Shown: positions 2,503-17,323 of the stretch, piece after piece
Layout of the letters: every line of letters begins with the position of its first letter
How positions within the stretch are numbered: the first letter of the stretch is position 1
DNA from: Parabacteroides massiliensis
Lineage (GTDB): Bacteria > Bacteroidota > Bacteroidia > Bacteroidales > Tannerellaceae
Assembly (NCBI RefSeq): GCF_900155425.1
Contig: NZ_LT700189.1
Span: 465,787-489,786 of the forward strand
Direction of reading: 5' to 3'
DNA length: 24,000 bases
Position numbers and translations under genes: made by a program
Notes under the pieces: generated by a model
Told to the model about the DNA's origin: nothing
What the model saw: the letters and a program-made list of their open reading frames with translations, nothing else
The model's database searches: none

Positions 2503-3789
2503 TTATTCCCCGAAATCTGATAACATCTCAATACGGTCGTTCATCTCTTCTTTTATTTGATGGCTCCAATAGGCATCAACCCCCGCTATATCCGCATATC
2601 GCTGGTAGTCGCTGACAACACCGATTGCCTTTTCTATGAGAGAGTCGGCTCCTTTTATATTGTATTTTTTGGCTATCTCGAGTAAGTCTCCACGTTTAAA
2701 GGCTGAGTTTTTGTTGTTTATGCTCAAGCAGTGACGATTTACGTATCCCGGAGCCGACGGATCGACCAAGAATGTGAAATCATAGGTAGGGGTAATATGC
2801 CACACCCCGTCTTGTCCCATCATGAAACTGAAATTCTTATTGTGGTCATCCACATTTCCTCCAAGCACATTCATGGTCATGGACAGGAACAGTTGTTGCA
2901 TTTCCATCGGCATGATACCAATACGACAAGCGGTTTCAAACAGAGACTCATAACTGTCTGCTACCGGATTCATTGCTGCTAAAGTCTGGATATGAATTTT
3001 CTCATTTCCTTTGCGGTCAAACCGTTCTGTCAGGAAATGTACATCCTTTTCTCCTTCAATAAGCATCGATGGCATCATTTCCATCCCTGCGTCCTGCGCC
3101 ATCAAGTAATAGCTATATTCAATACGTGTTGTCGGCAGGTCAAGATGCTCATCAAATTTGATTATCATTGGGGTGAAACCGGATGTGGGAGCATTTACCT
3201 GTCCCGAATAGCACTCATAGGTCTCCTTATTCATATGAATGATCGCTTTCGCTCTACGGCCACCGGCTGATGTTCCCACCTTGAACAGGCTCTCGATCAT
3301 CAAGTCTGGCTGCATTTTCGCTTTGAAGTCCTTAGCTTCGTTCAAGGCAGCACGGGCAAGCCTATACAGGTCGGCAATTTCCACTTTAAACGGTTTTTCC
3401 ATTTCTTCTGCGGCAGGAGGTATGAACTCCAACGCTCCCATTCCTCGCCTGCCGATGTAGGCCAAACGGTCGAGCGATGACAGGTCACGGGATTTTATAT
3501 GATGCACTTTTGCCCATTCATTAAATATCCTATTTCCCCAATGGTCAGGCAGTGAATCGGCTATGAAAGAGGGCAGGCCGCAGAAGCTCTTGTCGTCCTC
3601 CGCATAAACAGGCAATCCGCGCTGGACGGTTACACCATTTATTGGGGCTTGCAATGGAGCGATGTCATAACCACCCTTTATAAAGTCGCCGTCGAAATAA
3701 AAACATACCTTTTCAGTATATTTTTCCTTATAGGCTACCAGTGTGCCAACTTTCCGATTCCACAAAAAGACATCAAGATTTTGTATCAT
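2503..3789 (-). CDS. hipA: HipA-family type II toxin (Ser/Thr kinase)
   Basis: 428 aa. The N-terminus 'LDVFLWNRKVGTLV' fits the HipA N-terminal pattern. The C-terminal catalytic region is 'GGNVDDHNKNFSF...ITPTYDFTF'. Its start overlaps the stop of the upstream HTH gene by 17 nt (3773-3789). Confidence 0.85.
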   Translation of the reverse strand: MIQNLDVFLWNRKVGTLVAYKEKYTEKVCFYFDGDFIKGGYDIAPLQAPINGVTVQRGLPVYAEDDKSFCGLPSFIADSLPDHWGNRIFNEWAKVHHIKSRDLSSLDRLAYIGRRGMGALEFIPPAAEEMEKPFKVEIADLYRLARAALNEAKDFKAKMQPDLMIESLFKVGTSAGGRRAKAIIHMNKETYECYSGQVNAPTSGFTPMIIKFDEHLDLPTTRIEYSYYLMAQDAGMEMMPSMLIEGEKDVHFLTERFDRKGNEKIHIQTLAAMNPVADSYESLFETACRIGIMPMEMQQLFLSMTMNVLGGNVDDHNKNFSFMMGQDGVWHITPTYDFTFLVDPSAPGYVNRHCLSINNKNSAFKRGDLLEIAKKYNIKGADSLIEKAIGVVSDYQRYADIAGVDAYWSHQIKEEMNDRIEMLSDFGE

Positions 3790-4135: not shown

Positions 4136-4280
4136 CAAAATAATATCCATATATTACTACTATGTGTGGGGTTTCTTCTGATTATGTAAGAAATCATTCA
4201 TTTGATTTTTTCGTATGACATGATTTGGGCAGGCAAATCTTTTTGCTGGATAAATGTTTGCTTTCCGGCGGATCTGTGAG

Positions 4281-4288
4281 TACCTTTG
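4281..4288 (+). promoter_or_regulatory. Candidate -7 box TACCTTTG (TAnnTTTG) for the DUF6078-like gene
   Basis: Exact match to the Bacteroides -7 consensus, 23 nt upstream of ATG 4311. This argues against the upstream ATGs at 4254 and 4290 as starts. Confidence 0.35.
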
Positions 4289-4310
4289 TATGATACCAAT
4301 ACATTATATT

Positions 4311-4766
4311 ATGTTAGACAAATTGGATTATTCTTTGGTTCCTTATGATTTTGCGTTTTGTTTTGACGGGAAATGCCGGCGTGCTTCTACCTGTCTGCGT
4401 TATCAGGCGTCGCGCTATATTCCGAAAGAGTCCTGGGCGGTGAGGGTGGTCAATCCGGAGCGTGTTGTTCCCGATGGCGATTGTTGCGGGTTCATGGATG
4501 ACAGTCCGCTGAGAAACGCATACGGCATGGATCATCTGCTGGACAATATTCCTTATCGCGAGGCTAAGGAGATACGGAGGGAGATGAGGGAGTATTTCGG
4601 GACTACTCATTTTTACCGGCTGAAACGCAAGGAGCGTTGTTTCACTCCCGAAGGCCAGCAATATGTGCACGACCTGCTCCGCCGGTACGGTGTCGAAGGA
4701 GAGCCGGTGTTTGACCGGTATGAAGAAAATTTCGGTTGGGAATGCAATCCTGATACTACGGCATGA
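4311..4766 (+). CDS. DUF6078-like conserved Bacteroidales protein (Cys-containing, function unknown)
   Basis: The track ORF is 4254..4766. I prefer ATG 4311 ('MLDKLDYSLVPYDFAFCFDGKCRRASTCLRY...'), which gives the typical N-terminus I recall for this family. Also present: 'HLLDNIPYREAKEIRREMREYFG...YRLKRKERCFTPE'. Confidence 0.5.
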   Translation: MLDKLDYSLVPYDFAFCFDGKCRRASTCLRYQASRYIPKESWAVRVVNPERVVPDGDCCGFMDDSPLRNAYGMDHLLDNIPYREAKEIRREMREYFGTTHFYRLKRKERCFTPEGQQYVHDLLRRYGVEGEPVFDRYEENFGWECNPDTTA

Positions 4767-4786
4767 AAAAAAGGTTTCCATTGCAT

Positions 4787-4844
4787 GAAAATAAATTTTC
4801 CATAGGTAGAAAATAAATTTTCATGCGGTGGAAAATTTATTTTC
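4787..4844. repeat. Three copies of a 14-bp palindrome GAAAAT-(AA/TT)-ATTTTC at exact 22-bp phasing
   Basis: GAAAATAAATTTTC occurs at 4787-4800 and 4809-4822. Its exact reverse complement GAAAATTTATTTTC occurs at 4831-4844. Confidence 0.9.
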
Positions 4845-4927
4845 ACTGTTTGGAGAGGGGTGAAACATTTTGAGGTTTCTGAAAAGATTCGGTCTCTTAC
4901 GGGAGTTGCTTGTGTTGGAAAAAGCCC

Positions 4928-7276: not shown

Positions 7277-7311
7277 ATATAAATCATAAATCATAAATCA
7301 TAAATCATAAA
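7277..7311. repeat. Heptamer tandem array ATATAAA + 4 x TCATAAA
   Basis: Read directly from the sequence. It ends 3 nt before the sdaA ATG (7315). Confidence 0.9.
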
Positions 7312-7314
7312 CCG

Positions 7315-8520
7315 ATGGAATCAATCAAGCAAATATACCGGATCGGCCACGGACCGTCCAGTAGCCATACGATGGGGCCGATGCGAGCTGCCCGGATGTT
7401 CTTGGAACGTAATCAGGGCGCAGCGCGGTTTGATGTCACTCTCTATGGCAGCCTGGCAGCCACAGGCAAGGGACACATGACGGATGCAGCCATTCTCGAA
7501 GTGCTCAGTCCGGTAGCCAAAACCAACATCATCTGGGAACCGAAGGTGTTCCTGCCTTTCCACCCGAACGGTCTCCAGTTCCGTTCGTTTGACGAAAGCG
7601 GCAAGGAGTTGGAAAACTGGACGATTTACAGTATCGGCGGCGGAACGCTGGCAAACGAAACCTACAACGAGTTGACACAAGGGCAGGTCTACGAAATGCA
7701 TACCATCAAGGATATACAAGCCTGGTGTGAGAAAACCGGCTATTCCTACTGGGAATATGTCGAACAGTGCGAAGGTCCGCAGATATGGGATTATCTGGCC
7801 GAAGTATGGGATGTGATGCAACAGGCGGTCCATAACGGGCTCGAAACCGAAGGCATTTTGCCCGGTGGCCTGGGAATCCGTCGTAAGGCGTCCGACTATA
7901 TGATCCGTGCCAAAGGTTATGGCAGCAGCATCAAAAACCGCGGGATGGTCTATGCGTATGCATTGGCTGTTTCCGAAGAGAACGCTTGCGGAGGCCAGAT
8001 CGTGACTGCTCCGACCTGCGGTTCGTGCGGTGTGATGCCTGCCGTGCTCTATCACCTGAAAGAGTCTCGCGATTTCCGTGATTCCCGTATCTTGCGTGCG
8101 TTGGCGACTGCCGGGTTGTTCGGCAATGTGGTGCGTACGAATGCATCCGTTTCCGGGGCCGAGGTAGGATGCCAGGGAGAGGTTGGTGTGGCTTGTGCGA
8201 TGGCGGCAGCGGCGGCCAGCCAGTTGTTCGGCGGGACGCCTGCCCAGATCGAGTATGCGGCCGAGATGGGGCTGGAGCACCACTTGGGGCTGACGTGCGA
8301 TCCTGTTTGCGGACTGGTCCAGATACCCTGCATCGAACGTAATGCCTTTGCGGCAGCCCGTGCGTTGGATGCGAATACTTTCTCCAACTTCTCCGATGGC
8401 AAGCACCGGGTAAGTTTCGACCAAGTAGTCGAAGTGATGCGCCAGACCGGAAACGACCTGCCGAGCCTCTATAAGGAAACATCCGAGGGCGGGCTGGCTA
8501 AGAATATGGAACGGAAATGA
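7315..8520 (+). CDS. sdaA: L-serine ammonia-lyase (L-serine dehydratase), iron-sulfur dependent, single-chain
   Basis: Motifs 'YRIGHGPSSSHTMGP', 'TAPTCGSCGV' and 'GAEVGCQGEVGVACAMAA'; 401 aa. Confidence 0.85.
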   Translation: MESIKQIYRIGHGPSSSHTMGPMRAARMFLERNQGAARFDVTLYGSLAATGKGHMTDAAILEVLSPVAKTNIIWEPKVFLPFHPNGLQFRSFDESGKELENWTIYSIGGGTLANETYNELTQGQVYEMHTIKDIQAWCEKTGYSYWEYVEQCEGPQIWDYLAEVWDVMQQAVHNGLETEGILPGGLGIRRKASDYMIRAKGYGSSIKNRGMVYAYALAVSEENACGGQIVTAPTCGSCGVMPAVLYHLKESRDFRDSRILRALATAGLFGNVVRTNASVSGAEVGCQGEVGVACAMAAAAASQLFGGTPAQIEYAAEMGLEHHLGLTCDPVCGLVQIPCIERNAFAAARALDANTFSNFSDGKHRVSFDQVVEVMRQTGNDLPSLYKETSEGGLAKNMERK

Positions 8521-8525
8521 GAAGA

Positions 8526-8607
8526 TTTATGATTTATGATTTATGATTTATTAAAGAAAAACATATCATAAATCATAAATCATAAATCATAAATCATAAA
8601 TCATAAA
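8526..8607. repeat. Inverted heptamer arrays: (TTTATGA)x3.7 at 8526-8551 facing (TCATAAA)x6 at 8566-8607; long AT-rich hairpin
   Basis: The arms are reverse complements and could form a stem of up to about 26 bp in several registers, with the loop 'ttaaagaaaaacata'. One more TCATAAA at 8621-8627 abuts the GH43 ATG. Confidence 0.85.
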
Positions 8608-8626
8608 TGAAAATTCTAACTCATAA

Positions 8627-10409: not shown

Positions 10410-11732
10410 ATGAAACGAATGAACTTGAATGGATGGAAACGGTTAGCCTTTGTGTTGCTCGTCTTTCCCCTTGTGGCGGAAGGAGCGGGGGCACAGGAGC
10501 GTATAACGTTGGGCGAGTGCTACGAATGGGCGCATGCCAACTATCCGCAGATACACCGGTACGGGCTGATCGAACAGACCGAACAGTATAACCTGTCCAA
10601 TGCCGCCAAAGGCTGGCTGCCACAGCTCTCGGTCAATGCGAAAGCGACGTATCAGAGCGACGTGACAAAGTTGCCGTTCGATGCCGACAAGCTGTCGGCA
10701 ATCATTCCCGGAATCGAGATACCGACACTCAGCAAGGACCAGTATCAGGTCGTGGCCGAAGTGAACCAGACGATCTGGGACGGTGGCGTGATCCGTTCCG
10801 CCCGCCGGTTGACGGAAGCACAGGCAACGGCCGACCGGGAACAACTGAACAGCAACCTCTATGCCTTGAACGACCGGGTGAACCAGCTTTATTTCGGCTG
10901 TCTCCTGCAAGACGAACTGATCCGTCAGAACGGTTTGCTCCAGAAAGAGTTGCAGCTCAATATCGACCGTATCTCGGCCATGATGGAGAATGGCGTTGCC
11001 AACCTGTCCGACCGCGAAAGCATGGAAGTCGAGTTGTTGAACGCCCGCCAGAAGGCGATAGAGTTGAAAGCCGCCCGTTCGGCCTACGGCAAGATGCTGG
11101 CGGCCTTGATCGGCCGTCCGGATAGCGGGGCGTTCGTGCTGGAAGTCCCTTCGCTGCCGGAGGCTCCTTCGTTGTCGCCTGTGATCAGCCGGCCGGAGCT
11201 TCGTGCGTTGGATGCCCAAAGCGAGTTGCTCGAATTGCAGAACAAACAGTTGACCGCCGGGCTGATGCCTCGTATCGGTGCTTTCTTCCAGGGCGGTTAC
11301 GGCCGTCCGGGGTTGAATATGCTGGAAGACAGTTTCAATCCGTTCTACATCGCCGGTGTCCGTCTGAGTTGGAACATGGGTAAATTATATACCTTGAAGA
11401 ACGATCGCCGGAAGATTGCCACGGACCGCCGGGCGGTGGAAGTTGAGCGGGAGACATTCCTCTTCAATACCCGTCTCCAATTGACACAGCAGAACACGGA
11501 GATCAGGAAGATGACCGAACTGATGAAAGCCGACGATGAGATCATCCGCCTCCGCTCCAGTATCAAGAAGGCGGCCGAAGCCAAGCTGGCGAACGGCGTG
11601 ATCTCCGTCACCGACCTCATCCACGAGATCAACTCCGAAGACCTGGCCCGCCAGGCGGCTGCCACGCACCGGATACAACAGTTGCAATCAATCTATAATC
11701 ATAATGTTACTTTTGGCTTGACCCAAAAGTAA
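10410..11732 (+). CDS. TolC-family outer membrane efflux protein
   Basis: I prefer ATG 10410 ('MKRMNLNGWKRLAFVLLVFPLVAEGAGAQ', a signal peptide) over 10389. The protein has the two-repeat OEP pattern with long coiled-coil-like segments. The last 8 codons and the stop lie inside a repeat hairpin. Confidence 0.75.
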   Translation: MKRMNLNGWKRLAFVLLVFPLVAEGAGAQERITLGECYEWAHANYPQIHRYGLIEQTEQYNLSNAAKGWLPQLSVNAKATYQSDVTKLPFDADKLSAIIPGIEIPTLSKDQYQVVAEVNQTIWDGGVIRSARRLTEAQATADREQLNSNLYALNDRVNQLYFGCLLQDELIRQNGLLQKELQLNIDRISAMMENGVANLSDRESMEVELLNARQKAIELKAARSAYGKMLAALIGRPDSGAFVLEVPSLPEAPSLSPVISRPELRALDAQSELLELQNKQLTAGLMPRIGAFFQGGYGRPGLNMLEDSFNPFYIAGVRLSWNMGKLYTLKNDRRKIATDRRAVEVERETFLFNTRLQLTQQNTEIRKMTELMKADDEIIRLRSSIKKAAEAKLANGVISVTDLIHEINSEDLARQAAATHRIQQLQSIYNHNVTFGLTQK

Positions 11733-12363
11733 CCAAAAAGATCAAGGTTTGTCTGTTACTTTTGGCTTGATCCAAAAGTAACCAAAAAGTCAAGGCTTAA
11801 GCTGACGAGCTACTTCGTTCCCTTCGTTCGCTGTCGCGTCTGAAACTCGCTTCGCTCAAACAGCAGACGCTCCGGGCGCTCACTGCGGTCACTGCGCTTA
11901 ACGCTCGCCAGCTTAGGCCGGGAGCAGAGCCGGAACGGCTCTTTGGGGATTGCCGATACCGACACCTATATAACAGGCGGTATCGGCAATCATAGGAGAA
12001 AGCGGAGCTTTTTAGGAAAGGCCTAAGCGGACGGGCGTAAAGCGGAGGGTGAAGGCGTAGCGTCCGGAGCCTGCGCTGTTTGAGCGAAGCGAGTTTCGCA
12101 GGCGACAGCGTAGCCTTCACCCGGAGTAGCCCGTCCGGTTGAGCCTTGATCTTTTGGTTACTTTTGGATCAAGCCAAAAGTAACAGAACAACAGTTGGAT
12201 GTAATCCAACGAAAAAAGAAAGTTGGATGCGACCCAACGAAAAAAAATCTAGGGTATCGGGCAAAGCCCGCTCCACAGGCGACAGCGTAGCCTTCGCCCG
12301 GAGTAGCCCGTCCGGTTGAGCCTTGATCTTTTGGTTACTTTGGGATCAAGCCAAAAGTAACAG
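11706..12363. repeat. Composite palindromic intergenic repeat (REP/MITE-like) built around four copies of the hairpin GTTACTTTTGG-N6-CCAAAAGTAAC
   Basis: The hairpin occurs at 11706-11733, 11755-11782, 12157-12184 and 12334-12361. About 123-bp imperfect inverted arms lie at 11753-11875 and 12064-12186 (about 80% identity by eye). A central 13-bp inverted repeat pairs ATTGCCGATACCG (11949-11961) with 11978-11990. An 88-bp near-identical direct repeat lies at 12099-12186 and 12276-12363. Confidence 0.85.
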
Positions 12364-14232: not shown

Positions 14233-14972
14233 TTATGAATGTAATAGAAACAGATAAACTGACGAAATGCTTCGGTTCCTTTACCGCCGTCGACCATATC
14301 AGCTTCGCGGTAGGCGAGGGGGAGATTTTCGGTTTCTTGGGAGCGAACGGAGCCGGCAAGACGACTGCCATGCGTATGTTGTGCGGCCTTTCGACACCGA
14401 CCTCCGGGACGGGAAAGGTCGCCGGTTTCGATATCTATAAGGAAACGGAACAGATCAAACGGCATATCGGCTACATGAGCCAGAAGTTTTCCCTCTACGG
14501 AGACCTGAAGGTCTGGGAGAACATCCGCTTGTATGGCGGTATCTACGGCTTGTCCGAGAAGCAACTGAAAGCGAAGACGGACGAGCTGCTCCGGGTTCTT
14601 GACCTGGAGAACGAACGGAACACCTTGGTCGATGCCCTGCCGTTGGGCTGGAAGCAAAAGCTGGCTTTCTCCGTCGCCATCATCCACGAACCCCGGATCG
14701 TTTTCCTGGACGAACCGACCGGAGGTGTCGATCCCGTCACCCGCCGCCAGTTCTGGGAGCTGATCTACCAGGCTGCCGAACGAGGCATTACGGTCTTTGT
14801 CACCACCCACTATATGGACGAGGCGGAGTATTGCAACCGTGTCTCCATCATGGTAGACGGTAAGATCGAAGCCTTGGACAGCCCTTCCGCCCTCAAATCG
14901 TCTTTCAAGGCCGGTAATATGAACGAAGTCTTCCATGCGTTGGCACGGAGAGCGAAGAGAACGGAAAATTGA
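14229..14972 (+). CDS. ABC transporter ATP-binding protein (YbhF C-half-like), degenerate signature motif
   Basis: The track start 14214 is TTG. ATG 14229 forms an ATGA overlap with the upstream stop (14230-14232). Walker A is 'GANGAGKT' and Walker B is 'IVFLDEPT'. The signature position reads 'LPLGWKQK' rather than LSGG. Confidence 0.85.
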   Translation: MIMNVIETDKLTKCFGSFTAVDHISFAVGEGEIFGFLGANGAGKTTAMRMLCGLSTPTSGTGKVAGFDIYKETEQIKRHIGYMSQKFSLYGDLKVWENIRLYGGIYGLSEKQLKAKTDELLRVLDLENERNTLVDALPLGWKQKLAFSVAIIHEPRIVFLDEPTGGVDPVTRRQFWELIYQAAERGITVFVTTHYMDEAEYCNRVSIMVDGKIEALDSPSALKSSFKAGNMNEVFHALARRAKRTEN

Positions 14973-15002
14973 TAATTGAGAATTGAAAATTAAAGAATAA
15001 GC
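14970..15002 (+). repeat. Heptamer linker TGATAAT-TGAGAAT-TGAAAAT-TAAAGAA...: three TGA codons at 7-nt spacing
   Basis: TGA occurs at 14970 (the real stop), 14977 and 14984. It shares the core AATTGAGAATTGA with the 13290 linker. Confidence 0.9.
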
Positions 15003-16094
15003 ATGAAAAGTCCTTTGGTCGCTTTTGTTAGAAAGGAATTTATCCACATCTTCCGTGACAAGCGGACGATGATGATCCTGTTGTTGATGCCTGTCGTCCT
15101 GATCATCCTCTTCGGCTATGCCATTACGACGGAGATCAAGTGTGTGCCTATCGCAATCCTGGACCAGAGCCGGGACGAGGTGACGCAGAAGATGATTTCC
15201 CATTTTGTCGCCAGCGAGTATTTCGAGCTCTATAAGATGATCGATAACGTAGAAGAGGGCCGGGCCCTTTTCCGTCAGGGTAAAGTCCGGATGGTTTTAA
15301 TAGTTGAAAGGGGAAAGGTGAAAGGTGAAAGCGAAATCCAGCTATTGGTCGACGCGACCGATCCGAACGAAGCGACGCAGCTATCTGCGTATGCTACGCA
15401 GATAGCAGTTGAGCAACTTTCACCTTTCACCTTTCACCTTTCAACTGGCAAAGGAATTGTGCCGGTAATTTCTTTGCTCTACAACCCCCAGCTTCGTGGG
15501 GCGTACAACTTCGTGCCCGGTGTCATGGGGCTGATCCTGATTCTGATCTGTGCCATGATGACCTCCGTCGGGATCGTGAAGGAGAAAGAGATAGGGACGA
15601 TGGAAGTGCTTCTCGTTTCTCCGCTGAAGCCGGTCTATATCATTCTGGCCAAAGCGACTCCCTATCTGTTGTTGAGCTTAGTGAATATAGCCACCATACT
15701 GGCTTTGTCGTACTTCCTTCTGGATGTGCCGATCAACGGCAGCCTGTTGCTGTTAGTGGGCGTTTCCGTCCTCTACGCCTTGGTGGCGTTGTGCCTGGGG
15801 TTGTTGATCTCGACGATAGCCGACACCCAGCAGGCCGCCATGCTGATCAGTGCCGTTGTCCTGATGCTGCCCGTCATATTGCTTAGCGGGATGGTGTTCC
15901 CGATCGAGAATATGCCGGAGATACTGCAAGTCATATCCAATATCGTACCGGCCAAATGGTATATCATCGCCGTGAAAGATATCATGATTAAAGGCCTGGG
16001 CCTCGGTTCCGTCCTGCAGGAAATAGGCATACTGTCCCTGATGGTTGTCGTGCTGATAGGCTTGAGTGTGAAACGTTTTAAAATACGATTATGA
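15003..16094 (+). CDS. ABC-2 type transporter permease (YbhS/YbhR-like)
   Basis: N-terminal TM helix, a large extracytoplasmic loop with 'LLVDATDPNEA', then about 5 C-terminal TM helices. It is a paralogue of the next gene. Confidence 0.85.
   Translation: MKSPLVAFVRKEFIHIFRDKRTMMILLLMPVVLIILFGYAITTEIKCVPIAILDQSRDEVTQKMISHFVASEYFELYKMIDNVEEGRALFRQGKVRMVLIVERGKVKGESEIQLLVDATDPNEATQLSAYATQIAVEQLSPFTFHLSTGKGIVPVISLLYNPQLRGAYNFVPGVMGLILILICAMMTSVGIVKEKEIGTMEVLLVSPLKPVYIILAKATPYLLLSLVNIATILALSYFLLDVPINGSLLLLVGVSVLYALVALCLGLLISTIADTQQAAMLISAVVLMLPVILLSGMVFPIENMPEILQVISNIVPAKWYIIAVKDIMIKGLGLGSVLQEIGILSLMVVVLIGLSVKRFKIRL
15303..15445. repeat. Intragenic inverted repeat: 29-bp arms (28/29 match) of (GAAAGGT)n flanking 85 bp that contains a nested 11-bp perfect hairpin
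   Basis: The left arm is GTTGAAAGGGGAAAGGTGAAAGGTGAAAG (15303-15331). The right arm is CTTTCACCTTTCACCTTTCACCTTTCAAC (15417-15445). The nested hairpin pairs GCTATCTGCGT (15380-15390) with ACGCAGATAGC (15396-15406). Confidence 0.9.
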
Positions 16095-17194
16095 TGAGGA
16101 TGCTGAAATACTTATTGGAGAAGGAGTTCAAACAGATCAAGCGGGACCGGTTCCTGCCCCGTATCATCTTCCTTTTGCCGGTCATACAGTTGATGGTTCT
16201 TCCTTTTGCCGCTAATTTCGAGATGCGGAATATCAATCTGAGCATCGTCGACAACGACCATTCCGTCCTTTCCCGCAGGCTGACGGACAAGGTCCTGTCT
16301 TCCGGCTACTTCCGCCTGGCGGATGTCTCGCCCCGCTACGACGAGGCTTTGGTTTCCATCGAAAGCAATGCCGCCGATATCATCCTTGAGATACCGTCCC
16401 GTTTCGAAGAACGGTTGGGGCGGGAGGGAACGGCCGAGCTTCTGATAGCCGCCAATGCTGTGAACGGGACGAAAGGAGGGATAGGCAGTTCCTACCTCGC
16501 GTCCATCATCCAGGATTTCAATCAGGAGAAAAACCTTTTGCCCGTATCGGCCGGTGGAGGAGACGGAATCCGTGTCACGAACCTGTTCAATCCGCATCTG
16601 AATTATAAGAACTACATGGTTCCCGGTATCATGGCATTCCTGCTGACGCTTATCGGCGGTTTCCTTTCCGCCCTGAACATCGTGAGCGAAAAGGAGAAAG
16701 GGACGATCGAACAGATCAACGTGACGCCTGTCCCGAAAGCCCTGTTCCTGCTCTCCAAGCTGATCCCGTTCTGGATTATCGGGCTGATCCTGCTCACGAT
16801 AGGCACCTGTATCGCCTGGTTGGTCTACGGATTGCTGCCGGTAGGCAATATGGGGATCATCTATCTGTTTGCGGCTGTCTACCTGATGGCGTTCACCGGT
16901 TTCGGCCTGGCTATCTCGTCCGTCTCGTCCACCCAGCAGCAGGCCATGTTTACGGCTTTCTTTTTTATGATTATATTTGTCCTCCTGAGCGGAATGTTTA
17001 CCCCCGTCAGCAGTATGCCGGTCTGGGCACAGGAACTGACGCGTTTCAATCCGCTCCGCTATCTGGTCGAAGTGATGCGGATGGTTTATCTGAAAGGCAG
17101 CACTTTGTCAGACCTCACCGGCCACTTCATAGCTGTTTGCCTGTTCGCCCTGTTCTTTAACATATTGGCTATCGTCAGCTATAAGAAGAGTTGA
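16091..17194 (+). CDS. ABC-2 type transporter permease (YbhR/YbhS-like)
   Basis: ATGA overlap with the upstream gene (16091-16094). Same topology pattern as its paralogue. Confidence 0.85.
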   Translation: MMRMLKYLLEKEFKQIKRDRFLPRIIFLLPVIQLMVLPFAANFEMRNINLSIVDNDHSVLSRRLTDKVLSSGYFRLADVSPRYDEALVSIESNAADIILEIPSRFEERLGREGTAELLIAANAVNGTKGGIGSSYLASIIQDFNQEKNLLPVSAGGGDGIRVTNLFNPHLNYKNYMVPGIMAFLLTLIGGFLSALNIVSEKEKGTIEQINVTPVPKALFLLSKLIPFWIIGLILLTIGTCIAWLVYGLLPVGNMGIIYLFAAVYLMAFTGFGLAISSVSSTQQQAMFTAFFFMIIFVLLSGMFTPVSSMPVWAQELTRFNPLRYLVEVMRMVYLKGSTLSDLTGHFIAVCLFALFFNILAIVSYKKS

Positions 17195-17254
17195 AAGGTG
17201 AAAGTGAAAATGCAAATAGCAACGCGAAGCAACTTTCAACTTTCACCTTTCAAC
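17190..17254. repeat. Operon-terminal hairpin of the GAAAGGT family (16-bp perfect stem, about 33-nt loop); possible terminator
   Basis: GTTGAAAGGTGAAAGT (17190-17205) pairs with ACTTTCACCTTTCAAC (17239-17254). The left arm contains the permease stop TGA (17192-17194). There is no T-run after the stem. Confidence 0.7.
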
Positions 17255-17323
17255 TATAATGTGTTTTACGACATACTTAACCAATTTTTACAAACATTCT
17301 GCCATTCTTTCTTCATACTCTTT

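Follow-up and report, generated by a model that had tools for sequence, protein, structure and literature searches.

Opposed heptanucleotide arrays within a permease gene

Within the 24-kb stretch of Parabacteroides massiliensis DNA analysed here (hereafter, the window), an ABC-2 permease gene (open reading frame (ORF) 15003-16094) encloses both arms of a long inverted repeat. A repeat search of the window placed the arms at 15302-15331 and 15417-15446 (30 nt each, 97% complementary, 85 nt spacing), and a separate direct comparison counted 29 of 30 complementary positions, with G15312 as the sole mismatch. The inverted repeat is confirmed as a real feature; the 29-nt arms (28 of 29) given in a preliminary description of this DNA are the same repeat, shorter by one base at each outer end. 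When the window was simulated 100 times under a first-order Markov model, the longest perfect arm of any inverted repeat measured 11.6 nt on average and at most 15 nt, and the pattern GAAAGGTGAAAGGT occurs 10 times with up to two mismatches, versus 0.29 expected.

The left arm, A1 (15302-15331, forward strand), consists of the array AGTT GAAAGGG GAAAGGT GAAAGGT GAAAG, which encodes VERGKVKGES (residues 101-110) in frame, and the right arm, R (15417-15446, forward strand), of the array CTTTC ACCTTTC ACCTTTC ACCTTTC AACT, read as LSPFTFHLST (residues 139-148). Each arm comprises about four tandem units of one heptanucleotide, which reads (GAAAGKT)n in the left arm and as its complement in the right one. 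What is inverted here is thus a simple-sequence repeat (SSR), as opposed to a unique recombination site. Between the arms, the core (15332-15416, forward strand) is native permease coding sequence with the nearly invariant QLLVDATDPNEATQL motif, and Q113-L127 is at least 90% conserved in the orthologue alignment. The two peptides surround a native, conserved core, as had been described; the accompanying remark that this is not a simple insertion holds for the core and fails for the arms, which have replaced ancestral codons. Specifically, orthologues read FPPQYASSPDA where the window protein reads VERGKVKGES. The protein (363 aa) is indeed no longer than its paralogue, a comparison that is uninformative because orthologues span 344 to 394 aa and vary exactly in the repeat region. 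A perfect palindrome nested in the core (15380-15406, forward strand), which codes for LSAYATQIA, was previously recognized with 11-bp arms and has 12-bp arms (15380-15391 and 15395-15406) around a 3-nt loop; it carries one mismatch in relatives L002 and L008, and distant orthologues have a quasi-palindrome or none.

An AF2 model of low confidence (mean pLDDT 61.5), used for coarse topology only, predicts a strand (112-117) and a helix (121-139) in this region, with residues 105-110 and 140-152 at pLDDT below 50 between helix 20-41 and helix 171-198. The arm-coded residues probably form loops and are tolerated as linker.

A stop-avoiding mismatch

Codon 104 (GGA, Gly) starts with G15312, in place of a T that would give an in-frame TGA. 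The heptamer unit contains TGA, and a period of 7 brings this triplet into frame once per three units. In all coding copies examined, the T of the in-frame TGA is a G, giving GGA or GGG in A1 of the window, in a second left-type array (A2, below) of L001, L002 and L008, and in the arrays of L203 and L012, which explains the single mismatch. The preliminary description had rightly seen that the mismatch avoids a stop; as a hint of a switch it carries no weight, since any in-frame copy of the unit needs the same change to stay open. The right-arm strand is stop-free in all frames.

Further arrays and the heptanucleotide repeat class

At least four further heptamer arrays lie in the window besides the arms. 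One of them, AATTGAT AATTGAG AATTGAA AATT (14967-14991, forward strand), is situated between ATPase 2 and permease 1, holds the ATPase-2 stop codon TGA (14970-14972) and reaches to within 11 nt of the permease start; the L008 lineage has another array, (ATTATTC)n, at the equivalent site, and the HlyD stop codon of L008 also falls inside an array. An (ATAAATC)n array downstream of the serine dehydratase gene has between 3 and about 30 units in strains that share an identical protein. At the operon end, a sister hairpin (17189-17255, forward strand) is built of the same heptamer unit as the arms around a 30-nt loop (GTGAAAATGCAAATAGCAACGCGAAGCAAC; loop sequence AATAGCAACGCGAAGC), bearing out its earlier assignment to the same repeat family, and its first unit provides the permease 2 stop TGA (17192-17194). 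Across 26 loci, this hairpin occurs as 18 alleles with lengths of 71/78/85/92 or 72/79/86/93 nt, that is, in 7-nt steps.

Cyanobacterial STRR heptamers are an example of heptanucleotide repeats. Bacteria have been described as enriched in heptanucleotide SSRs, which carry a stop in each of the three frames and overlap upstream stop codons (Mrazek et al. 2007, as cited in PMC4679880 and PMC4692102); examples are the TAACTGA repeats of Beggiatoaceae, Cyanobacteria and Bacteroidetes (PMC4679880) and the GGGAATC repeats of Xanthomonas (PMC4692102). The window repeat belongs to this known class: we found at least three tandem units, copy-number steps of 7 nt, an excess of period-7 runs and overlap with stop codons. 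In 0.6 Mb of fetched loci, which are orthologous and hence redundant, runs of period 7 number 96, versus 13, 8, 12, 3 and 12 for periods 5, 8, 9, 10 and 11, and runs of period 6 number 95, as expected of coding DNA. A genome-collection scan (at least 120 stretches) found GAAAGTT arrays in many phyla, and 32 of the 124 GAAAGTT runs listed from other genomes contain the end of an ORF of 100 codons or more. In the literature searched by sequence and keyword, neither the GAAAGKT unit nor a gut Parabacteroides host of such repeats was found, and a search for the arm sequence brought up nothing of relevance.

The window arrays share with known heptanucleotide SSRs the tandem 7-nt units placed mostly at gene boundaries, the variation of copy number between close strains, and a forward strand with stops in all three frames that often overlaps the stop of the upstream gene; inverted arrangements and stop-free-orientation copies inside ORFs have both been reported for the class. 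They differ in three respects: an ORF contains a stop-bearing left array and stays open thanks to a point change, a conserved protein motif lies between two opposed arrays, and the arrays drive recurrent in-frame deletion of that motif.

Allele series and recurrent loss of the core

In relatives L001-L009 and L046 the gene has the order A1-core-A2-loop-R, in which A2, the loop and R form a complete hairpin, and by this comparison an older intragenic hairpin appears to have supplied R, its 3' arm. The window has the full L001-type structure minus 48 bp, in frame, and the 3' end of its core holds an A2 remnant and the deletion junction, where AGTTGA is joined to GCAAC (15407-15417, forward strand) after 15412. 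We infer that a 48-bp in-frame deletion took out A2 and the loop in the window lineage, so that A1 and R remained as sole partners. An allele census of 127 proteins from two protein searches yielded 42 full alleles, three sorted as window-type, five core-deleted and two hairpin-deleted; the window and the 42 full alleles all have an uninterrupted ORF. P0011, sorted as window-type, still has an A2-like stretch. Samples with precisely the window allele are ERZ27287477, ERZ27267112, SRR29134033, ERZ28810433, ERR13991190, ERR3003472, SRR18498492, ERZ27241662, ERR14760729 and ERZ15609734.

Among the core deletions, L201 retains A2-type units and L227 and L228, two different backgrounds, retain A1-type units. 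The three junctions are all different and occur in three backgrounds, indicating that the conserved core has been deleted at least three times independently. Assembler collapse was rejected as the source of these deletions: the identical bases shared by A1 and A2 (at most about 17, read from the sequences) fall under usual k-mer sizes, and the junctions and backgrounds differ. A1 is missing in L229/P0056 and L203/P0020, in which the ancestral IPAGFASS(P/S)DAS is kept; it appears to be younger than the hairpin because L229/P0056 has the hairpin without A1. The A1 of L206 bears the ATAGC flank of A2, which suggests that A1 is a local duplicate of A2.

Unit number also changes within the gene. 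One R unit is missing in L047 (-7), whose contig has about 6x coverage, leading to a frameshift, and P0003 is 21 nt shorter, exactly three units. These alleles, a unit length of 7 that is not a multiple of 3, and the free copy-number variation of neighbouring arrays would fit a contingency locus, in which the permease is turned reversibly on and off by frameshifts as the arms gain or lose 7-nt units. We nevertheless regard such a locus as very unlikely: the intragenic arrays are short (4 units) and broken up by G/T variants, the whole 145-bp unit is identical in 10 window-lineage contigs (a biased sample, picked by identical protein sequence), a single frameshifted allele was seen, and an efflux permease is not a typical phase-variable surface gene.

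Orientation of the core and of the sister hairpin

The lead inference of the preliminary description was an intragenic inverton, in which recombination between the arms flips the 85-bp core to give either a stop (OFF) or a recoded loop, and hence phase-variable efflux. Its in-silico products were both reproduced: the reverse complement of the whole unit reads VER followed directly by a stop, and the core-only flip reads through without a stop as SCSTAICVAYADSCVASFGSVASTNSWIS. Intragenic invertons are documented in Bacteroides thetaiotaomicron, including a validated thiC inverton with an 11-position repeat, of which both orientations were present in cultures (Chanin et al., PMC10028968). The window resembles these systems in having a pair of inverted repeats (29/30) wholly within a gene and a predicted inverted form with a premature stop or a recoded segment; unlike them, it yielded no second orientation among assemblies and proteins and no invertase gene among the ORFs scanned, and has arms that are SSR arrays.

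Several observations argue against inversion of the core. In the assembled sequences, it is forward in 22 of 22 close orthologous loci that retain it, and a search with the core-flipped protein against 5.8 billion protein clusters found no recoded variant, the best match being the native P0001 at 92% identity. As the preliminary description had stated, no recombinase was found in the window, a Pfam scan of 20 ORFs, covering those of at least 150 aa, showing no integrase or invertase domain. A recombinase encoded elsewhere might still act in trans. Moreover, the arms are generic SSR units that also occur in non-invertible arrays, and the flipped form would destroy the most conserved motif of the loop. 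On the evidence of these assemblies and proteins, the inverton was rejected as the explanation of the repeat, and we consider it highly improbable.

The operon-end sister hairpin does occur in both orientations among strains (12 loci forward, 14 reverse), and such arrays can therefore mediate inversion over evolutionary time. Its orientation follows lineage, being forward in 9 of 10 loci of the window lineage (8 of 9 scorable P0001 contigs) and reverse in 8 of 9 of the L002-type clade, which points to rare heritable events and not to fast switching. An assembler artefact was also dismissed for loop orientation, which tracks lineage and is not random. Kelchner and Wendel reportedly described comparable hairpin-loop 'minute inversions' in chloroplast non-coding DNA in 1996. 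The operon-end hairpin is similar to these in that a short loop flanked by inverted repeats takes either orientation among close lineages; it differs in the type of genome and in having tandem-repeat arms whose unit number also changes. Overall, the descriptive points of the preliminary description stand and its lead inference is not supported, and the last of its alternatives, a domesticated palindromic repeat, comes close to the comparative picture.

Two related hairpins

A related possibility is the in-frame insertion, followed by domestication, of a mobile palindromic element of the MITE or RPE kind, the operon-end copy representing a second insertion. The two copies lie 1.8 kb apart and the 30-nt loop of the sister hairpin is identical to that of the intragenic hairpin of relative L001; empty sites exist in relatives, both at the operon end (L012 and L013) and in the gene (L010 and L013), and the host frame is preserved; and some strains carry the entire operon-end hairpin, together with its arms, in inverted orientation. 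In Rickettsia, palindromic RPEs are known in frame in a housekeeping gene, where they are translated as extra loop residues that are apparently compatible with the fold (PMC10969869). Like RPEs and intragenic MITEs, the element described here is an in-frame palindrome in a housekeeping gene translated as loop residues. RPEs form dispersed families of about 150 bp with conserved sequence; here, by contrast, the arms are simple 7-nt arrays that evolve in situ, two copies are known and there is no target-site duplication.

Comparison of filled and empty sites revealed no direct repeat flanking either hairpin. The loop motif (up to three mismatches) gave chance-like partial matches only in 0.88 Mb around 124 other listed GAAAGTT arrays, and the window holds no third copy; across the window and these 0.88 Mb, the loop is shared by the two copies only, and we discarded a dispersed mobile element on these grounds. 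No transposase lies nearby, and our literature search on MITEs in Parabacteroides found nothing relevant. Finally, lineages differ in the arm unit, which drifts in situ, and retain a homologous loop, a pattern that a resident, evolving hairpin fits better than repeated insertion does. A mobile origin therefore has little chance of being correct.

Array units differ by lineage (AAGTTGA, CAGTTGA, CAATTGA) and both arms change together; in both lineages with two hairpins (the window and L203), the unit change is common to both. Such covariation between arms might be taken as a sign of a selected mRNA structure, with the A1-R stem (about 30 bp of double-stranded RNA) acting as an RNase III site, ribosome pause or stabiliser. 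The predicted RNA fold is strong (-77.6 kcal/mol, z = -11.9), and the predicted minimum-energy structure pairs R with the distal A1 even in full alleles that have A2. On the other hand, the stem lies 300 nt within the ORF, where translating ribosomes would open it and where cleavage would destroy the permease message; A1-R pairing, 29/30 in the window, is 25-27/31 in relatives and falls to 24-25/31 in the L002 clade; alleles without R or the core are common; and arm covariation can arise from DNA-level templating. An Rfam 15 scan of the whole window returned nothing at the gathering score, so that a known RNA family was set aside, and so was a terminator, since a consensus scan for intrinsic terminators (G+C-rich stem followed by a T run) flagged neither hairpin and there is no terminator-like T tract. 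Although somewhat less far-fetched than mobility or phase variation, a selected mRNA structure is improbable.

A probable by-product of simple-sequence repeat dynamics

We conclude that the inverted repeat is probably a by-product of heptanucleotide SSR dynamics and not a programmed switch. In the scenario that best fits the alleles, an SSR hairpin (A2, a loop of about 30 nt, and R) would have arisen in a poorly conserved part of the extracytoplasmic loop of the permease, and would have remained in frame because the strand of its right arm is stop-free and because the in-frame TGA, which falls once per three units of the left arm, had become GGA. The entire hairpin has a second copy just upstream of the original permease 2 stop codon. 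Later, A1, a probable local duplicate of A2, would have replaced about six ancestral codons 100 bp upstream, and a 48-bp in-frame deletion of A2 and the loop in the window lineage would have left A1 and R as a 29/30 inverted repeat around the strand-helix core. Under this scenario, the arrangement itself may have no selected function, and the locus would be a mutational hot spot subject to slippage by 7-nt steps, deletion between the direct arrays A1 and A2 with removal of the conserved core, deletion across the hairpin, and occasional inversion of a whole hairpin.

Two features sit less easily with neutral slippage. The higher A1-R complementarity of the window than of its relatives could reflect selection or conversion rather than neutrality, and the unit changes shared by both arms and both hairpins are not obviously explained by passive slippage alone. 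It is conceivable, albeit unlikely, and still the least improbable departure from the by-product reading, that the heptamer hairpins of the operon are kept alike by an active templated process, candidates being hairpin-templated conversion from arm to arm and conversion between the copies 1.8 kb apart. Templated conversion would account for the stepwise unit change shared by both arms and both hairpins, for the better match of R to the newer arm A1 in the window (29/30) than in relatives, and for in-place inversion of whole hairpins. If so, A1, A2 and R would constitute a recombination module that repeatedly makes permease isoforms within populations, core-less and perhaps, rarely, inverted.

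Implications

SSR hairpins like the one in the window will be picked up by inverton-screening tools that take inverted repeats as their starting point (einverted, PhaseFinder, PhaVa). An SSR hairpin can be told cheaply from an inverton by asking if its arms consist of tandem arrays and if deletions, not flips, are seen in relatives. For Parabacteroides, the arrays explain the scatter in family length (344-394 aa), contig breaks at gene boundaries and repeat-supplied stop codons. More generally, 7-nt arrays can persist within an essential-looking domain if one base change removes the in-frame stop. Intragenic arrays make the gene fragile in return: at least three separate times, wild gut strains lost the best-conserved motif of the permease loop.

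Heptamer arrays within a permease gene

The first of two ABC-2 permease genes in an efflux operon (TetR, outer-membrane factor, HlyD-type adaptor, two ATPases, two permeases) contains a long inverted repeat. Repeat search delimited two 30-nt arms, at 15302-15331 and 15417-15446, and together with direct comparison scored them as 97% complementary (29 of 30 positions) across an 85-nt spacer, in agreement with the slightly shorter arms first described (15303-15331 and 15417-15445). This is far above chance level: the longest perfect inverted-repeat arm in simulated sequences never exceeded 15 nt, the arm pattern is present 10 times in the window where 0.29 occurrences would be expected, and the predicted RNA fold of the repeat reaches -77.6 kcal/mol (z = -11.9). 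Both arms are tandem arrays of a single 7-nt unit, the left one reading AGTT GAAAGGG GAAAGGT GAAAGGT GAAAG and the right one being complementary to it. The proposed kinship with the operon-end hairpin also holds, as a complete hairpin at 17189-17255 is made of the same unit and its unit 1 supplies the TGA stop of permease 2.

Repeat search further revealed a perfect palindrome nested within the spacer, or core (15332-15416). Its existence was correctly anticipated, but it spans 12 bp (15380-15391 / 15395-15406) rather than 11 bp (15380-15390 / 15396-15406). Its arms enclose a 3-nt loop, and it encodes LSAYATQIA within the conserved core. Relatives L002 and L008 carry it with one mismatch, L203 has only a quasi-palindrome and more distant orthologues lack it; it could be a quasi-palindrome 'perfected' by template switching.

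Structural alleles and order of events

Close homologues are annotated as Parabacteroides. Orthologues range from 344 to 394 aa (88-99% identity), and the full-length forms differ in length in the repeat region, where more distant orthologues read VVVFPPQYASSPDAEVQLLADATDPNEATQL... and the close clade reads LIVESGKVKGESEIQLLVDATDPNEATQLSAYATQIAVESGKLKVESENANSNAKQLSPFTFHLSTGKG. In close-clade DNA the order is left array (A1), native core, second array (A2), a 30-nt loop (GTGAAAATGCAAATAGCAACGCGAAGCAAC) and right array (R). The window has this structure minus 48 bp (16 codons, SGKLKVESENANSNAK), with a deletion junction joining AGTTGA to GCAAC at 15412/15413, and its inverted repeat is therefore a derived state. 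R appears to be what is left, on the 3' side, of an older intragenic hairpin whose own 5' arm was deleted, so that A1, 100 bp upstream, is the remaining partner. Contigs from independent samples, at least 24 of them, carry the window allele, which is thus real and widespread.

Among 127 proteins from two protein searches, 42 clusters have the full structure, three are window-type (one of them, P0011, retaining an A2-like stretch), two lack the hairpin (in L204, GTTGAAAGT is joined to GGCAAAGG) and five lack the whole conserved core. Core loss came about by recombination of A1 with A2, which are direct arrays. It has at least three independent origins: L201, on a background near the window, retains A2-type units, and L227 and L228, on the L002 and L008 backgrounds, respectively, retain A1-type units. 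In L047, R is shorter by one unit and the frame is shifted, which could be an error given that this locus is a single contig at ~6x coverage. The arrays are the source of these structural alleles.

The intragenic hairpin is old: L203 (92% protein identity) and L012 (71%) carry one at the equivalent site, with homologous loops (AATAGCGACGCGAAGC and ATAGGAAGCGACGAGAA) and array units CAATTGA/CAATGGG and CAGTTGA, respectively; L010 and L013 have none. A1 is younger than the hairpin, since L229 (P0056) has A2-loop-R together with the ancestral IPAGFASSPDAS at the A1 position. In L206 (P0018), ATAGC stands before A1 just as it does before A2, and this common flank suggests that A1 originated as a local duplicate of A2.

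Stop-codon avoidance and orientation of the core

The sole arm mismatch is, as claimed, G15312, which opens codon 104 (GGA). On the coding strand the heptamer unit includes TGA (AGT TGA A) and, because the period is 7 nt, successive units fall in different frames, so that three units place a stop in all three; a given frame that is to stay open requires a change in exactly one of every three units. A stop-avoiding change was found in all coding copies examined: AGG GGA in A1 of the window, AGT GGA in A2 of L001, L002 and L008, AAT GGA in L203, and both AGT GGG and AAT GGA in L012. The complementary strand (TTCAACT and variants) is stop-free in every frame, and R therefore needs no such change. 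Stops in every one of the three frames, and overlap with the stop codons of upstream genes, are likewise described for TAACTGA heptamer repeats (PMC4679880). As TGA avoidance is obligatory in any surviving in-frame copy, the mismatch is not evidence of a switch.

The preliminary description had proposed a candidate inverton, with the core flipping between the arms as an ON/OFF or recoding switch. Both in silico flips were reproduced (the whole unit gives ...VER*, the core alone an open frame reading SCSTAICVAYADSCVASFGSVASTNSWIS), and the geometry resembles that of intragenic invertons (PMC10028968), but their defining second orientation was not found for the permease core, which is forward in 22 of 22 close loci retaining it (L001-L009, L046, L047, L207-L216 and the window). 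When the core-flipped protein was searched against 5.8 billion protein clusters, a search that could not recognise truncated OFF products, the best match was the native protein P0001 (92% identity) and no cluster contained the recoded segment. A flip would also destroy residues Q113 to L127, whose conservation across the family is 90% or higher, and no invertase was found in the window; the reported absence of a recombinase gene agrees with our scan of ORFs within the window, which detected no recombinase or transposase domain. The suggested orthologue comparison showed the arms in the close clade, no A1 in L229, and TGA avoided in all coding copies examined. On assembled loci and protein clusters, which would not reveal a small inverted subpopulation, core inversion is not supported. 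The intragenic loop is also forward in every allele examined; inverted, it would read ESCFALLFAFSLS instead of ESENANSNAKQLS (hand translation), and its constant orientation accords with selection acting on the peptide it encodes.

In an AlphaFold2 (AF2) model, whose overall confidence is low (mean pLDDT 61.5), residues 101-110 (A1) and 139-148 (R) lie in or adjoin segments with pLDDT <50 (105-110 and 140-152), and the core is predicted as a strand (112-117) plus a helix (121-139), with the first long helix (20-41) before the whole region and the second (171-198) after it. The model fits a reading of the arm residues as linker insertions that are tolerated on either side of a conserved structural unit.

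Variability of the operon-end hairpin

The operon-end site is empty in L012 and L013 (AAGAAATAA joined to TATGCTTTAC). The operon-end loop of the window matches the L001 intragenic loop exactly, and both hairpins of L203 use a CAATTGA-type unit, indicating that the two hairpins are copies that have remained alike within each lineage. The operon-end copy, which is non-coding, is more variable than the intragenic one, with 18 distinct alleles in 26 loci and lengths of 71/78/85/92 or 72/79/86/93 nt; its G/T patterns vary by strain and its two arms remain largely complementary. The whole hairpin occurs in both orientations (12 forward, 14 reverse), being forward in 9 of 10 loci of the window lineage (8 of 9 scorable P0001 contigs) and reverse in 8 of 9 loci of the L002-type clade. 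Since orientation tracks lineage, the inversions are heritable and rare, and both assembler noise and fast switching were rejected.

Other repeats in the window and beyond

An AATTGAT AATTGAG AATTGAA AATT array (14967-14991) holds the ATPase 2 TGA stop (14970-14972), and 11 nt separate its end from the permease-1 ATG. In the L008 lineage this junction is occupied instead by (ATTATTC)n, read by some gene callers as an N-terminal extension (P0005, MSISKLFIINYSLFIN). L008 also has an additional heptamer hairpin, (TAATGAA/GAATGAG)n ... (TTATTCA/TTATTAA)n, between its HlyD-type gene and ATPase 1 (L008 1768-1885), and the stop codon of HlyD falls within the array; the corresponding junction in the window is just 10 nt. 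Taken across lineages, heptamer arrays occupy three junctions of the operon plus its end.

The serine dehydratase gene (7315-8520) is flanked on both sides by (ATAAATC)n arrays: (ATAAATC)4 at 7279-7306, directly upstream of its start, and a (GATTTAT)4...(ATAAATC)n hairpin at 8522-8621. Among strains with an identical serine dehydratase protein, the downstream (ATAAATC)n varies from 3 to ~30 units, and the upstream array comprises 2-4 units or has a hairpin in its place; several contigs terminate inside the downstream array.

Period-7 runs total 96 across the 0.6 Mb of loci retrieved, versus 3-13 for periods 5 and 8-11, counts that are redundant because the loci are orthologous to one another. 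A three-unit GAAAGKT scan of the genome collection matched at least 120 stretches in many phyla, a spread that fits a generic simple-sequence repeat (SSR) rather than a lineage-specific element. Among the matches listed (L081-L200), arrays with three or more GAAAGTT units come from Bacteroidota, Cyanobacteria, Acidobacteriota, Patescibacteria, Planctomycetota and Chloroflexota, among other groups; they are often succeeded by a second array of a different, partly complementary heptamer, and an ORF of at least 100 codons stops inside the run in 32 of 124 runs.

Repeats of other kinds are also present. The 670-nt gap between the outer-membrane-factor and HlyD-type genes (11706-12361) contains a composite repeat in which a 28-bp palindrome (GTTACTTTTGGnTnGAnCCAAAAGTAAC) occurs four times, alongside a large inverted repeat (71-nt arms 11747-11817 / 12122-12192, with 52-nt arms inside); the composite looks like an inserted palindromic element. 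An AT-rich inverted repeat (4764-4845; 37-nt arms, 81%, 8-nt spacer) with repeated TGAAAATAAATTTTC motifs lies immediately 3' of a DUF6078 gene (4254-4766). Further upstream, and unrelated to the permease repeat, are a HipA-type toxin kinase gene (2503-3789, minus strand) and a RecD/PIF1-like helicase gene (831-2408).

Nature of the repeat

A selected RNA function of the stem would accord with its great stability and with the predicted minimum-energy fold of full alleles, which pairs R with the distal A1 rather than A2. It is argued against by the position of the stem 300 nt within an ORF, by complementarity as low as 24-25/31 in the L002 clade, by the commonness of alleles without a partner arm, by an Rfam search that returned no match and by the lack of a terminator-like T tract at either hairpin.

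Heptanucleotide SSRs are an already recognised class, known near start and stop codons, in stop-free orientation inside ORFs, in inverted arrangements and with length variation among close strains (PMC4679880, PMC4692102). According to work of Mrazek and co-workers as cited in those papers, they are reportedly the commonest long-SSR category in most genomes, and polymerase-related slippage has been proposed for them. Rickettsia palindromic elements (PMC10969869) share the in-frame residence, but for the intragenic and operon-end hairpins neither dispersed copies, sought in 0.88 Mb around 124 other GAAAGTT arrays, nor target-site duplications were found. We consider it probable that the permease repeat is an in-frame remnant of a heptanucleotide-SSR hairpin, acting as a hot spot of deletion and rearrangement. 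That an active templated mechanism underlies the joint change of the two arms and the two hairpin copies seems improbable to us; why they keep changing together is the point of real interest.
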